DNA of 64,000 nt from Escherichia coli O127:H6 str. E2348/69 (GCF_000026545.1 NC_011601.1); one strand, 5' to 3'. Shown: positions 19,439 through 27,900, counted from the stretch's first letter. Notes: generated by a model from the sequence alone, not told the origin. Translations and numbers: made by a program.

Positions 19439-19518
19439 GTACAAAACAAACGCAGAAGCAGGATCCGCAGGCCGGCATCATCCCTGGATTCTTCTGCACT
19501 TACAATTTTTTCATGCAG

Positions 19519-20160
19519 TCACCCCGTTGCCATTAACTCTTCAAGTGATGCATACCCGACTACCGCAGAGTTAAAGCACGGCTGTTGAAAATCCTCGGCG
19601 ACAACAATCGTTTTAATTCCCGCTGCCTGTGCAGCTTTAAAACCACTCAGACTGTCTTCTATAACCAGACAATCTGCGGCGGGCAGGCGTAATTTTCGTA
19701 GTGCGGAGAGGTAAACTGCCGGATGTGGTTTGCCGTGGCTTTCGTCGTCAGCACTGCAAATCACCGAAAAACAGTGTTCAATTTTGAGTTTTGTCAGCAC
19801 CGCATCAATCACCTGATAAGATGAAGAGGTCGCCAGTGCCAGTTGGTATCCTGACTGGCATAAAAAAGTGAGCACATTCTTTACCCCCGGCATGGCCTCG
19901 CCTTTTTCAGCAATTAACGTGGTTATCAGGCGACGGATCTCCGCTTCCAGTTCCGTGGGCGTAATAGACAGATGACAGTATTCGCACCAGGTTCGGGCTA
20001 TCTCATCAAGCCTTTTCCCTTTCGTCAGTTGGATACACTCTTCATCGCTAACGCTGGCACCCCATCGTGCCAGCGCTCCTTGTTGCGCCTGACGCCATAA
20101 TCCTTCCGAATCAATAATGACGCCGTCCATATCAAAAATAACTGCTTTGCAATTAAACAT
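19519..20160 (-). CDS. HAD-superfamily sugar phosphatase
   Basis: 213-aa ORF with HAD motif I FDMDGVIIDSE; last gene of the minus-strand dal cluster. Confidence 0.75.
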   Translation of the reverse strand: MFNCKAVIFDMDGVIIDSEGLWRQAQQGALARWGASVSDEECIQLTKGKRLDEIARTWCEYCHLSITPTELEAEIRRLITTLIAEKGEAMPGVKNVLTFLCQSGYQLALATSSSYQVIDAVLTKLKIEHCFSVICSADDESHGKPHPAVYLSALRKLRLPAADCLVIEDSLSGFKAAQAAGIKTIVVAEDFQQPCFNSAVVGYASLEELMATG

Positions 20161-20204
20161 CGTTCCTCACATTAAAGCCTGGCATTACACCAGGCTTGCC
20201 TCCA

Positions 20205-21482
20205 TCAGGAAACCGTCGCGGCTTCACCTGCTCTTAATTTCTGGGTTGAGAATCCTGGTTGTTCAACCCGAATAAACGGGCAAATAATAAACGCGATAAT
20301 GTACAGGGTTGTATAAGCTATAACCACACCAATTGCACTGAAATAAGGTAACAGCACCACGGCTATCGCAGGGGCAAGAAAGTTAGACAGACCGGCAGAG
20401 AGGTTATAAACCGAAATCGCCGCGCCTTTGTGTTTTGGCTCCAGCGCCGGGAAAACCGCCGCCATCGGCACGAACGCTGCAACAAAGATCCCCAGCGCAA
20501 CGGCGGGCACCATTGCCATCCAATAGTTATGCCCGAAGTATTGCGGCATGTAGTAGAAAGCCAGACTGGAAAGTGCCATTCCCACACAGCCGAACCAGCG
20601 AACAACTTTCATCCAGCCAATCTTCTCTGCCAGTACGCCCCAGAAAATGTTGGTAAAAATCGTCGTGAAGAAGAAGACCGCCCACACCTGTAGCCACTCG
20701 GACGTAGTAAAGCCCAGTTCATCGACAAACATCATCGGCATAATCACCGCAAAGCCAAACAGTGACAATGTATTGATAATTCGCACAATACTGGAGAGCA
20801 AAATGTTGCGGTTGGTGTAGAGTAAGGTGACAGCACGGCCGAGCTCGCTGAACTTCTCTTTGGTCGTCAGATTTTGCATATGATGCGGAGTCTGAACTTT
20901 ACGCATCGAAACCAACGCAAGAATGCCGCCAGTTACGCAAAATCCCAGCGCCAGCCACAGGGTGCCCATTTCGCCGATAACCGGAATGGTAAAGCTGGGA
21001 ATGTAACTACCGAAAACGCCAATACCAATGGAGTAAACCGCCCAGAACCAGCCCAGCGCGGCACTGGTACTGTCGCTGCGCACGTTATGCACAACGGCAA
21101 CGATAAAGGCGTAAAGGAAGAGAGGATATGCCAGACCACGAATGCCGTAGAACAGCAGAATTAATGCATAGTTCGCCTGCCCCAGACCGAAGACCAGAAA
21201 CAGCACATGGAAAATACACCACAGTACAAAACCGATGAACATGGTCTTTTGCGGCGTAATAATTTCCGCCACCACGCCGGATACCCATGCAGAGAGTGCC
21301 GCCGCCAGACCATACAGCGTGAAAGCAAATGAAGCTTCCGCAGGCGTAAAGCCCAGCGCCTTAATATAGTGCGATAGGAATGCCAGTTCAAAACCATCGC
21401 CGGTCATAAAGATAGCAATCGCTATATATCCCCAGACCAGATTTAAAGGTAATCCCAGCCATTGTTTATTGGTTAACGACAT
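20205..21482 (-). CDS. dalT: MFS polyol transporter (DalT-like)
   Basis: 425-aa reading from MSLTNKQWLGL with GAGG ribosome-binding site; 12-TM MFS; track ORF extends 8 codons upstream. Confidence 0.7.
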   Translation of the reverse strand: MSLTNKQWLGLPLNLVWGYIAIAIFMTGDGFELAFLSHYIKALGFTPAEASFAFTLYGLAAALSAWVSGVVAEIITPQKTMFIGFVLWCIFHVLFLVFGLGQANYALILLFYGIRGLAYPLFLYAFIVAVVHNVRSDSTSAALGWFWAVYSIGIGVFGSYIPSFTIPVIGEMGTLWLALGFCVTGGILALVSMRKVQTPHHMQNLTTKEKFSELGRAVTLLYTNRNILLSSIVRIINTLSLFGFAVIMPMMFVDELGFTTSEWLQVWAVFFFTTIFTNIFWGVLAEKIGWMKVVRWFGCVGMALSSLAFYYMPQYFGHNYWMAMVPAVALGIFVAAFVPMAAVFPALEPKHKGAAISVYNLSAGLSNFLAPAIAVVLLPYFSAIGVVIAYTTLYIIAFIICPFIRVEQPGFSTQKLRAGEAATVS

Positions 21483-21550
21483 AGTGACCTCGTTTGTAGG
21501 GTACAAAACGCCGCTCCGGTGTCACCACCGGAGAGCATTAATGACAGTTG

Positions 21551-26096: not shown

Positions 26097-26393
26097 GTGC
26101 CAGTTATCTGGGAACCTATCTACACCGTGTCAAAATTTGCGGTTCAGGCCTTCGTCCACACAACTCGCCGCCAGGTTTCACAATATGGCATCCGCGTTGG
26201 CGCGGTGTTGCCGGGTCCGGTGGTTACCGCTCTGCACGACGACTGGCCGAAAGCCAAAATGGATGAGGCTCTGGCAAACGGCAGCCTGATGCAGCCGATC
26301 GAAGTAGCGGAGTCGGTGCTGTTCATGGTCACCCGTTCAAAAAATGTCACCGTGCGCGATCTGGTGATCCTGCCAAACAGCGTTGATCTGTAA
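26097..26393 (+). pseudogene. Short-chain dehydrogenase C-terminal fragment (putative ribitol 2-dehydrogenase remnant)
   Basis: 98 aa holding the SDR catalytic YxxxK ([11 protein letters not shown]) and downstream segment; Rossmann N-terminal half absent. Confidence 0.65.
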
Positions 26394-27841
26394 GGGCATT
26401 ACTATGACTGCAACCAAAACTGTCATCGGTGTCGATGTGGGTTCAGGCAGCGTCCGGGCTGGGGCTTTGGATCTCCAGGGCACATTACTTGCTCACGCGG
26501 CACACAAAATCACGACCACCCGACGCAGCGGTAGCCGCGTCGAACAGTCCAGTCAGCAAATCTGGCAGGTCCTTTGTTCAAGCATTCGGGAGGCATTGTC
26601 AAAAGCGGATGTCTCTGCACAGAGTGTCGCGGGTATTGGCTTTGATGCTACCTGCTCTCTGGTGGTGCTGGATAAAAATGGTGAACCGTTGCCGGTCAGC
26701 CCGGAAGGTGAAGCGCAGCAAAACATCATTGTCTGGATGGATCATCGTGCTACCAACCAGGCAAAGCGAATCAATGCCACACATCACCCGGTGCTGAAAT
26801 ACGTCGGCGGGATCATTTCACCGGAAATGGAAACACCGAAGCTCCTGTGGCTTAAAGAAAATATGCCTGAAGTCTTCGATCGTGCTGGATATTTCTTCGA
26901 TCTGGCTGATTTTCTGACCTGGCGCGCCACGGGGGACCTGGCTCGTTCGGCCTGTACCGTGACCTGCAAATGGACGTGGCTGGCTCATGAAAATCGCTGT
27001 GATCCGGACTACTTCCACACCATTGGCCTGACAGCGTTAGCTGATGAAGAATTTGCACGTATCGGTCAGCATATTGCATCGCCAGGAACGTCCTGTGGCA
27101 ATGGCCTCCGTTACCGATCCACTTTTTGTTCCCGGCATCTGGGGACAGTACTATAACGTTATGGTTCCTGGGTTATGATTAATCGAAGGCGGACAAAGTG
27201 CTGCCGGTGCGGCTATCGATCAGTTACTGTCGTTCCATCCTGCGTTTGATGAAGCAAATAAACAAGCTCAGCAGGCCGGACAACCATTACTGGTATGGCT
27301 TGCCGACCAAATCCTGGCAAAAACGGCGCAACCGTCCGATGCCGTGGCGCTGGCAAAAGGTTTACATGTGGTGCCGGAATTTCTCGGTAATCGCGCCCCC
27401 TTCGCCGATCCTCATGCCAGAGCTGTGATTTGCGGGCTGGGTATGGAGTGCGATCAGGATAATTTACTCGTTCTGTATGTTGCCGGGTTATGTGGCATCG
27501 TCTATGGTCTGCGACAAATTCTGATGCGCAATCCGCTCTGGGCGTAGTCAATAAAAATATCGTCATTTGCGGCGGTGCCGGTCAGCACCCACTGGTGCGG
27601 CAAATTCTGGCAGTATGGTCTGCCGGTCATTACCACGAAGTGTAGCGAACCGGTATTATTAGGCTCGGCAATTCTGGGAGCTGTTGCCGGAAAAGTTTCA
27701 CCTTCGGTGAGTGATGCCATGCAGCAATTTACCCATGTGGATACGCAATATTATCCACAACAAAATTACCAGACGCTGCATAAGCAGCGGTATGAGGCTT
27801 ATCAGCAATTACAGGCGCTGGCAAAAAACTGTCGGGAGTAA
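26383..27841 (+). pseudogene. FGGY-family sugar kinase (putative D-ribulokinase) with multiple frameshifts and in-frame stops
   Basis: Kinase-like translation jumps frames near 27100 and 27547-27575, with in-frame TGA near 27172 and TAG at 27545-27547; N-terminus MTATKTVIGVDVGSGSVRAG, C-terminus IVICGGAGQHPLVRQIL / EPVLLGSAILGAVAG. Confidence 0.75.
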
Positions 27842-27845
27842 ATAA

Positions 27846-27880
27846 AAAACCGGGGCTCCTTGAAGTTCCCGGTTTTATTG
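27846..27880. terminator. Bidirectional rho-independent terminator between the kinase pseudogene and gatR
   Basis: AAAACCGGG...CCCGGTTTT 9-bp inverted repeat flanked by A/T runs on both sides. Confidence 0.5.
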
Positions 27881-27900
27881 CCCACAAAATTGAGAATAAA

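Follow-up and report, generated by a model that had tools for sequence, protein, structure and literature searches.

A probable pentitol catabolic cluster with a decayed ribitol arm beside the gat operon of Escherichia coli O127:H6 E2348/69

Pentitol and galactitol genes between yegS and fbaB

The dal and rbt operons of Klebsiella pneumoniae/aerogenes are reportedly the biochemically characterised pentitol system, with the work ascribed to Heuel et al. in 1998 and to Mortlock and co-workers. In Raoultella, Klebsiella, Enterobacter, Leclercia, Superficieibacter and Citrobacter koseri, these genes follow the order yegS-HAD-dalT-dalK-dalD-dalR-rbtR-rbtD-rbtK-(rbtT)-fbaB. For E. coli, later citations of Link and Reiner 1983 and of Woodward and Charles 1983 describe the C-type rtl-atl region as the classical case of "genotypic exclusion" or "chromosomal alternative" to gat. 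A ribitol/arabinitol cluster adjoining gat is known from E. coli O55:H7 CB9615 (Zhou et al. 2010, PMC2806823), and the same paper reports that O157:H7 has lost the entire cluster and cites Link and Reiner 1983 for both pathways being present in 13% of E. coli. D-arabitol toxicity to gat-positive E. coli has served as a laboratory selection, according to a passage of PMC5094792 that cites Reiner 1977.

The window analysed here is a stretch of 64,000 nucleotides from E. coli O127:H6 str. E2348/69 (GCF_000026545.1, NC_011601.1), in which a first-pass annotation had placed an 8.4-kb polyol segment between yegS and gatR that K-12 lacks. The coordinates are exact: positions 19439-27900 (8462 bp) are 100% identical to NZ_CP059840.2 of E. 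coli O127:H6 E2348/69 and replace an 81-bp spacer that is all that lies between yegS and gatR in K-12 MG1655. The left core flank is the lipid kinase gene yegS (18539-19438, plus strand; 490.8 bits on NCBIfam NF009602), and the cluster begins at the base after its stop codon, with K-12 homology in the junction alignment stopping within the last ~4 codons of yegS. On the right, the cluster ends at the base before the stop codon of gatR, which begins at 27901 on the minus strand and is precisely where K-12 homology restarts. Terminator-like hairpins lie at the left island end, 3' of the HAD gene (19451-19469, minus strand; homologous in the C-type allele) and, as found by sequence scan, in the 59-bp rbtK-gatR spacer (27852-27869, plus strand), which is particular to the O55:H7/E2348-type allele without rbtT.

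The galactitol genes next to the cluster are complete, again as first annotated. The gene for the DeoR-family galactitol repressor, gatR (27901-28674, minus strand), is uninterrupted by family match, RefSeq annotation and junction alignment; in MG1655, gatR is split by IS3E and gatC is a pseudogene. The genes gatD, gatC, gatB, gatA, gatZ and gatY (28780-34149, minus strand) are all intact ORFs without pseudogene flags in RefSeq and share 95-99% identity with the gat operon as it stands in about 5000 genomes. Next comes fbaB (34376-35428, minus strand; RefSeq and synteny), the core gene that borders the polymorphic slot on the right. Because gatR is whole, galactitol use by the gat PTS pathway is expected to be unimpaired and inducible. 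Judged by their strong family matches, the dal, rbt and gat loci of E2348/69 are real genes, and a chance pattern is excluded.

Intact D-arabitol arm and remnants of the ribitol arm

We consider it very likely that the locus is an enterobacterial pentitol catabolic cluster in the yegS-fbaB slot, present as a rare allele beside gat, in which the ribitol arm has been destroyed and the D-arabitol arm kept under purifying selection. The two arms would form a mirror image, the dalDKT-HAD operon plus dalR making up one half and rbtR plus rbtDK the second. All five genes of the D-arabitol arm that had been read as intact are indeed full-length ORFs, and DalD, DalK and DalT score above their family cut-offs. 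The D-arabinitol 4-dehydrogenase gene dalD (23028-24395, minus strand; 455 aa) reaches 747.9 bits on the NCBIfam NF043014 equivalog (cut-off 600), aligned over 1-451 of 452. For the D-xylulokinase gene dalK (annotated xylB; 21551-23014, minus strand; 487 aa) the score is 639.8 bits on TIGR01312 XylB (cut-off 380), and for the pentitol MFS transporter gene dalT (20205-21482, minus strand; 425 aa; RefSeq WP_000060032.1) it is 519.1 bits on TIGR00897, the RbtT/DalT/CsbX family (cut-off 375). Both genes lie next to each other on the minus strand and form one predicted operon with dalD. DalT, the sole transporter of the E2348/69-O55:H7 allele, is 93% identical in amino acids to the DalT and 83% to the RbtT of the C-type.

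The last gene of the dal operon (19519-20160, minus strand) encodes an intact HxpB-like, HAD-family sugar-phosphate phosphatase of 213 aa, which scores 172.9 bits against NF008087 HxpB, under the cut-off of 191; in almost every dal cluster of enterobacteria and Vibrio, a HAD gene comes after dalT. Divergently from dalD, the intact dalR (24603-25544, plus strand; GTG start) encodes a SorC-family repressor of 313 aa with an N-terminal HTH and a PF04198 Sugar-bind domain (3.9e-51). By gene layout, the control region between dalD and dalR spans 207 bp (24396-24602) and holds a promoter-like site at 24462-24490 (plus strand), but the counts of our promoter/terminator scan were at chance level overall and the scan does not define the dal promoters.

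The remnants of a LacI-type regulator, an SDR dehydrogenase and an FGGY kinase that had been noted further right proved to be truncated or frameshifted copies of genes intact in O55:H7 CB9615, where rbtR (343 aa), rbtD (249 aa) and rbtK (534 aa) are whole; the intact O55:H7 SDR (RbtD) matches solved "ribitol 2-dehydrogenase" PDB structures (E = 1e-147), and the intact RbtK scores 838.6 bits on TIGR01315. Compared with CB9615, E2348/69 lacks 1094 + 161 bp and has three small frameshifts besides, giving at least five lesions in the rbt genes (+1 bp, the 1094-bp deletion, the 161-bp deletion, -1 bp and -5 bp). Of the LacI-family gene rbtR (25546-26095, minus strand), only the C-terminal ~180 codons remain, with the +1 frameshift at 25651. 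Alignment to the intact allele puts the joint of the 1094-bp deletion at 26089/26090; this deletion runs from rbtR, which lost 163 N-terminal codons, across the rbtR-rbtD control region and into rbtD, whose first 446 bp are gone, and the endpoints of the deletion in the intact allele are bordered by the repeat ATCG[A/C]CGGTG. What is left of rbtD (ribitol 2-dehydrogenase, SDR; 26085-26393, plus strand) are the C-terminal ~100 codons. The FGGY pentulose kinase gene rbtK (D-ribulokinase; 26404-27841, plus strand) has suffered the 161-bp deletion at 27098/27099 between CAATGGCCT repeats as well as the -1 at 27521 and the -5 at 27613. Both large deletions thus fall between 9-10-bp direct repeats, and the rbt arm was probably lost in the E2348/69 lineage through spontaneous deletions between such short repeats together with the small frameshifts.

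RefSeq flags rbtR, rbtD and rbtK of E2348/69 as pseudogenes, and a functional ribitol arm (RbtR, RbtD, RbtK) is absent from the strain, leaving homologous remnants only. We rejected assembly artefacts as a source of these pseudogenes, which recur in three E2348/69 assemblies that are independent of one another and in ten related genomes. The missing rbtT was likewise rejected as a sign of decay, given that the rbtK-gatR junction is common with O55:H7 and that single-transporter layouts are frequent in other genera; having a single transporter is the design of this allele, as in C. koseri and K. oxytoca.

The enzymatic roles of the intact arm are modelled on the characterised Klebsiella pathway. 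By this analogy, DalR would repress the operon until D-arabitol appears, DalT would import it, DalD would oxidise it to D-xylulose in an NAD+-dependent reaction, and DalK would convert D-xylulose to D-xylulose-5-phosphate for entry into the pentose-phosphate pathway, while the co-operonic HAD enzyme probably clears stray polyol or pentulose phosphates. Ribitol should be unusable because RbtD and RbtK are truncated and the promoter region is deleted, which would interrupt the route from ribitol through D-ribulose to D-ribulose-5-P. From the gene content we therefore predict E2348/69 to be D-arabitol+, ribitol- and galactitol+; we found no growth, expression or enzyme data for this strain on D-arabitol, ribitol (adonitol) or galactitol, and no mention of the island, in the searchable literature.

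Selection on the two arms and alternative readings

Among 5426 complete genomes, 5105 carry gat, about 304-308 carry the C-type allele (with rbtT and without gat; the rbtT-fbaB junction is found in 308), and 26 have the E2348/O55:H7-type allele together with gat. Thirteen of these 26 carriers, from humans, dogs, water and soil, have the identical rbt decay, and rbt is intact in the 13 others. At all 13 loci with inspected annotation (11 with decayed and two with intact rbt), gat is intact. Between E2348/69 and O55:H7, dN/dS is 0.14 for dalK, 0.05 for dalD and 0.03 for dalR (0.03-0.17 for the dal genes overall), values taken over both branches that are not proof of constraint on the E2348 branch alone. 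The ratio of nonsynonymous to synonymous changes (N:S) is 19:18 in the rbt remnants and 17:52 in the dal genes (Fisher p = 0.009).

A different explanation for the uneven fate of the arms is that the dal arm is kept chiefly as protection, with DalD and DalK removing D-arabitol that is toxic to gat-expressing cells and the HAD enzyme hydrolysing stray polyol phosphates, while the rbt arm decays for want of such a benefit. We regard this as unlikely. It draws on the toxicity of D-arabitol to gat-positive E. coli described in the passage of PMC5094792 cited above, on gatR being intact in every inspected genome with the gat-coexisting allele, and on the conservation of an HxpB-like hexitol-phosphatase homologue in the dal operon. 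However, O55:H7 and XJ34 retain dal, rbt and gat all intact, so that gat alone does not drive the loss of rbt, and species and alleles that lack gat have the HAD gene as well.

It is also conceivable, though quite improbable in our judgement, that the island as a whole is being lost and that the dal arm has simply not decayed yet, being silent or phenotypically irrelevant in E2348/69. On this argument, the five or more independent lesions in the rbt arm mean that selection on the locus has long been relaxed, and O157:H7 lost the cluster without obvious cost. A further point in its favour is a slippage-prone homopolymer gained by dalD at codons ~30-32 (24295-24302, minus strand; comparison with relatives), which is G8 in E2348/69 and G6 in O55:H7 (CB9615) and XJ34, and at which dalD is annotated as frameshifted in two of the 11 related assemblies inspected, RM14723 (G7) and 377323_2f (G9). 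Given these changes of +1 or -1 at the G8 run in two of 11 relatives, the D-arabitol arm, too, may be unstable or in an early stage of decay. Yet the other nine of the 11 assemblies have the five dal-arm genes at full length, the two dalD frameshifts could be homopolymer errors of long-read sequencing, and both the low dN/dS and an N:S significantly below that of the rbt remnants speak for an arm that is kept.

Origin of the cluster and comparison with known systems

The least tenable alternative, a recently acquired mobile genomic island from another genus inserted between yegS and gatR, is in our view highly improbable: its proponent could point to the absence from K-12, the sharp boundaries and a dS of about 1.2 between two E. 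coli alleles, by which at least one of them would have to come from outside E. coli, but no integrase, transposase, tRNA/att site or flanking repeat was found at the locus (short chance repeats only), the G+C of 47-56% is near that of the flanks, at least six other genera have the cluster at the same yegS-fbaB position, no locus closer than 78% nt turned up in a donor scan of species-representative genomes, and the allele is common to E2348/69-related and O55:H7 genomes at 98% identity. All large ORFs at the locus are explained by catabolic genes, and the same scan found the cluster absent from the Escherichia species representatives. Since Klebsiella, Raoultella, Enterobacter, Leclercia and Citrobacter koseri all have dal-rbt in the yegS-fbaB slot, the cluster is best described as occupying an old syntenic position and not as a mobile island. 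A broader scenario, which we advance as doubtful, holds that pentitol genes and gat side by side are the older E. coli state, that the K-12 type arose by dal-rbt deletion and the C-type by a foreign two-transporter cassette replacing the interval, and that the E2348/69 lineage would keep the D-arabitol arm and the HAD gene because they neutralise D-arabitol toxic to gat-positive cells.

Among other genera, the nearest species representative is C. koseri, with one colinear 9.6-kb alignment at 77.9% nt, a single transporter and no rbtT, and amino acid identities over the aligned parts of 93% for DalD, 94% for DalK and 96% for RbtD. It differs in that rbtK is followed by fbaB with no gat between and in a HAD gene that is only ~50% identical, and we rejected it as a donor, since neither E. 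coli allele is closer to it than the other. The Klebsiella dal/rbt system shares the mirror-image layout, the central repressors and the yegS-fbaB neighbourhood. A check against K. pneumoniae proposed with the first-pass annotation bore out the assignments, with 83-84% identity for the Dal orthologues DalD, DalK, DalT and DalR (DalR 83%), 69-88% for RbtR, RbtD and RbtK, and the same gene order; K. pneumoniae and Raoultella differ in having two transporters, no adjoining gat operon and every gene intact.

Within E. coli, the O55:H7 CB9615 cluster is the same allele, with 98.2% nt identity over the island, identical boundary sequences including the left junction at the yegS stop, the 59-bp rbtK-gatR spacer, no rbtT and an intact gat operon alongside. 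The proposed synteny comparison with the C-type likewise held for the yegS...fbaB slot, the order HAD-dalT-dalK-dalD-dalR-rbtR-rbtD-rbtK and a homologous left junction. However, the C-type is only about 82% identical in nucleotides overall (82.5%; range 75-86%) with proteins at 82-94%, and dS between the two clusters is 1.05-1.35 (about 1.2) compared with 0.145 for yegS. It also has a second transporter, rbtT, which is inverted relative to dalT (77% nt, 85% aa), is missing from E2348/69 and directly abuts fbaB with no gat, in contrast to the intact gatR-gatY between rbtK and fbaB of E2348/69. The E2348/69 cluster is thus not of the C-type: gat is present, the inverted dalT/rbtT pair is absent and the sequence is not near-identical. 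Of the earlier statement that classical genetics had pentitol and galactitol genes exclude each other at this locus, the coexistence in this strain stands, but the exclusion was already known to be non-absolute (PMC2806823).

The locus serves well to illustrate a polymorphism with three states at a single slot, which can hold gat alone, a foreign pentitol cassette alone or the two together, and it shows a paired system with one operon decaying and its twin conserved. The predicted D-arabitol+, ribitol-, galactitol+ phenotype is concrete for a much-used EPEC reference strain, which also offers a natural background for studying the known toxicity of D-arabitol to cells that carry gat and what the conserved HAD phosphatase does. 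Compared with what is known, the E2348/69 locus is an annotated and largely published variant and no new system: earlier work had documented the cluster with its pathway and position as well as, in 2010, its occurrence together with gat in O55:H7, and the three pseudogenes had been marked by RefSeq.

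Gene content between yegS and gatR

In the chromosome of enteropathogenic E. coli O127:H6 strain E2348/69, 8462 bases (19439-27900) fill the interval from the end of yegS at 19438 to the stop codon of gatR, which starts at 27901 on the minus strand. They match NZ_CP059840.2 at 100%, and the island coordinates of the first-pass annotation are exact. K-12 had been described there as gene-free at this site, and MG1655 indeed carries only an 81-bp spacer with a REP-like element between the two genes. In the junction alignment, K-12 homology is lost in the final four codons of yegS and regained precisely at the gatR stop codon. 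MG1655 gatR is interrupted by IS3E and K-12 gatC is a pseudogene. RefSeq flags no pseudogene among gatR and gatDCBAZY of E2348/69, which are followed by fbaB, so that the operon is complete and gatR uninterrupted, as first described. Outside the island, the CyaR sRNA gene lies at 17560-17645 (+; 100.7 bits on Rfam), and the K-12 PR-X cryptic prophage remnant (ogrK, yegZ) is missing between CyaR and yegR; in O55:H7 strain CB9615, yegP and yegQ are instead separated by a ParD/ParE toxin-antitoxin pair.

From the centre outwards, the minus strand encodes dalD (23028-24395; D-arabinitol 4-dehydrogenase equivalog of NCBIfam, 747.9 bits against a cut-off of 600), dalK (21551-23014; annotated xylB, 639.8 bits on xylulokinase), dalT (20205-21482; RbtT/DalT/CsbX MFS family, 519 bits), and a HAD hydrolase of 213 aa (19519-20160) that is closest to hexitol phosphatase HxpB while scoring under its cut-off. 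Divergent from dalD, dalR (24603-25544, +) carries the Sugar-bind domain PF04198, which is typical of SorC-family repressors; together with the family scores, it supports the identities proposed for these genes. The HxpB-like phosphatase gene follows dalT in nearly every dal cluster found (loci L005-L060, Klebsiella to Vibrio), which makes it the fourth gene of a dal operon conserved from Enterobacteriaceae to Vibrio.

The biochemistry of the Klebsiella dal/rbt system is the basis on which we assigned pathway steps by orthology. DalR would act as repressor until D-arabitol is present, DalT would import this polyol, DalD would oxidize it to D-xylulose, and DalK would form D-xylulose-5-phosphate to feed the pentose-phosphate pathway, with a putative role of the HAD enzyme in removing polyols that were mis-phosphorylated or pentulose phosphates present in excess. 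Since gatR is whole, the pathway for galactitol should be both functional and repressible. According to a passage in PMC5094792 that cites Reiner 1977, D-arabitol poisons gat-positive E. coli and serves to select gat mutants. Strains with both dal and gat therefore harbor a built-in conflict, perhaps relieved by the dal arm.

Decay of the ribitol arm

The LacI-type regulator rbtR (25546-26095, -), the SDR oxidoreductase rbtD (26085-26393, +), and the FGGY pentulose kinase rbtK (26404-27841, +) had been read as remnants, and all are RefSeq pseudogenes. In CB9615, whose copy of the island is 98.2% identical, rbtR (343 aa), rbtD (249 aa; E = 1e-147 against solved ribitol 2-dehydrogenase structures), and rbtK (534 aa; pentulose kinase family, 838.6 bits) are all intact, and this genome served as alignment reference for calling lesions. 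Relative to it, E2348/69 has one extra base in rbtR at 25651 and a 1094-bp deletion (joint 26089/26090) that took 163 N-terminal rbtR codons, the entire control region between rbtR and rbtD, and the initial 446 bp of rbtD, while rbtK suffered deletions of 161 bp (27098/27099), 1 bp (27521), and 5 bp (27613). Ribitol use is thus predicted to be abolished in E2348/69. Short direct repeats, ATCG[A/C]CGGTG and CAATGGCCT, flank both large deletions in the intact allele, a pattern characteristic of slippage or illegitimate recombination that occurred spontaneously. Assembly artefacts are ruled out, since three assemblies of E2348/69 have the lesions in common with ten further genomes (human, dog, water, and soil); four of these 13 have lost a further 7 bp. 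At 25544-25619, the remnant of rbtR converges on dalR with 1 bp between stop codons, and an inverted repeat with 22-nt arms within its 3' end (25575-25619) could be a dalR terminator.

Between E2348/69 and O55:H7, dal genes show dN/dS of 0.03-0.17. Pooled readable parts of the rbt remnants differ by 19 non-synonymous and 18 synonymous changes, compared to 17 and 52 in the dal genes (Fisher p = 0.009), as would fit a ribitol arm under relaxed constraint and an arabitol arm on which constraint persists. The comparison takes in the E2348 and O55:H7 lineages jointly and not the E2348 branch by itself. Compared with O55:H7 and XJ34 (both G6), dalD of this lineage has a G8 homopolymer (24295-24302, codons ~30-32) that arose by a synonymous change from GGA to GGG, and two of 11 related assemblies have a frameshift annotated exactly there (G7 in RM14723, G9 in 377323_2f). 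These represent either real slippage, with dalD beginning to decay or being switched on and off, or homopolymer errors of long-read sequencing.

Overall, the initial observation was confirmed and its interpretation supported. The system is known and annotated, and its intact form is in print (Zhou et al. 2010, PMC2806823); the only unreported detail identified is that the ribitol arm was lost in a lineage-specific manner with the arabitol arm kept, which amounts to ordinary pseudogene formation.

Distribution, origin, and the E. coli C-type allele

Among 5426 complete E. coli genomes, 5105 have the gat operon and 330 any version of the dal region. The allele studied here accompanies gat in 26 genomes, half with decayed rbt genes and 13 with intact ones (O55:H7 strains and a few others, e.g., bovine XJ34), so that about 0.5% of all genomes, and 8% of those with dal, have both clusters. 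Zhou et al. 2010 (PMC2806823) described how CB9615 has its ribitol/arabinitol cluster next to gat and how O157:H7 lost it via a 131-kb recombination, and they cite Link and Reiner 1983 for both pathways occurring in a minority of E. coli.

The same gene order between yegS and fbaB in species representatives of Raoultella, Klebsiella, Enterobacter, Leclercia, Superficieibacter, and Citrobacter koseri places the cluster in a syntenic slot of long standing. In none of the representatives of other species does gat lie between rbtK and fbaB. Neither mobility genes nor flanking repeats were found in the island, and its G+C is unremarkable. Island dS between E2348/69 and O55:H7 (0.03-0.05) is below that of the flanks (0.085-0.20) and XJ34 combines the E2348/69 DalR protein with O55:H7 HAD and DalT proteins, which suggests that E. 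coli lineages have exchanged the island through homologous recombination. The nearest foreign dal-rbt locus, in C. koseri NCTC10786, aligns as one colinear 9.6-kb stretch of DNA, though its protein alignments are fragmentary (coverage of DalD 44%, RbtK 28%, RbtD 67%); this suggests many frameshifts, from either a decayed cluster or an error-rich assembly. The C. koseri HAD copy is ~50% identical, the remainder of the cluster 90-96%.

The other 304 dal carriers have a divergent allele (about 82.5% nucleotide identity) with E. coli C-type organization, yegS-HAD-dalT-dalK-dalD-dalR-rbtR-rbtD-rbtK-rbtT-fbaB, and no gat operon; a direct rbtT-fbaB junction occurs in 308 genomes. The classical view of pentitol and galactitol genes as mutually exclusive, mentioned in the first-pass annotation, therefore holds for the C-type but not for the allele found beside gat. 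One C-type genome, EM20-18-50 (NZ_CP063467.1), matches only 31% of the query (HAD, transporter, and FGGY kinase), suggesting an independent internal deletion of the pentitol cluster in another lineage. With dS of 1.05-1.35 between the two alleles as opposed to 0.145 for adjoining yegS, and proteins 82-94% identical, at least one of them must have come from outside the species by interval replacement; no sampled species representative exceeds 78% nucleotide identity to either. Many dal-rbt loci elsewhere have a single transporter, so we reject decay as the reason for the missing rbtT and consider it an architectural variant. Where the E2348/69 island has one transporter, the C-type has two: in strain G1/2, dalT (9770-11047 of that locus) and rbtT (18776-20050) are inverted paralogues (77% nucleotide, 85% amino acid identity) at both cluster ends, presumably the "inverted repeats" of classical heteroduplex work.
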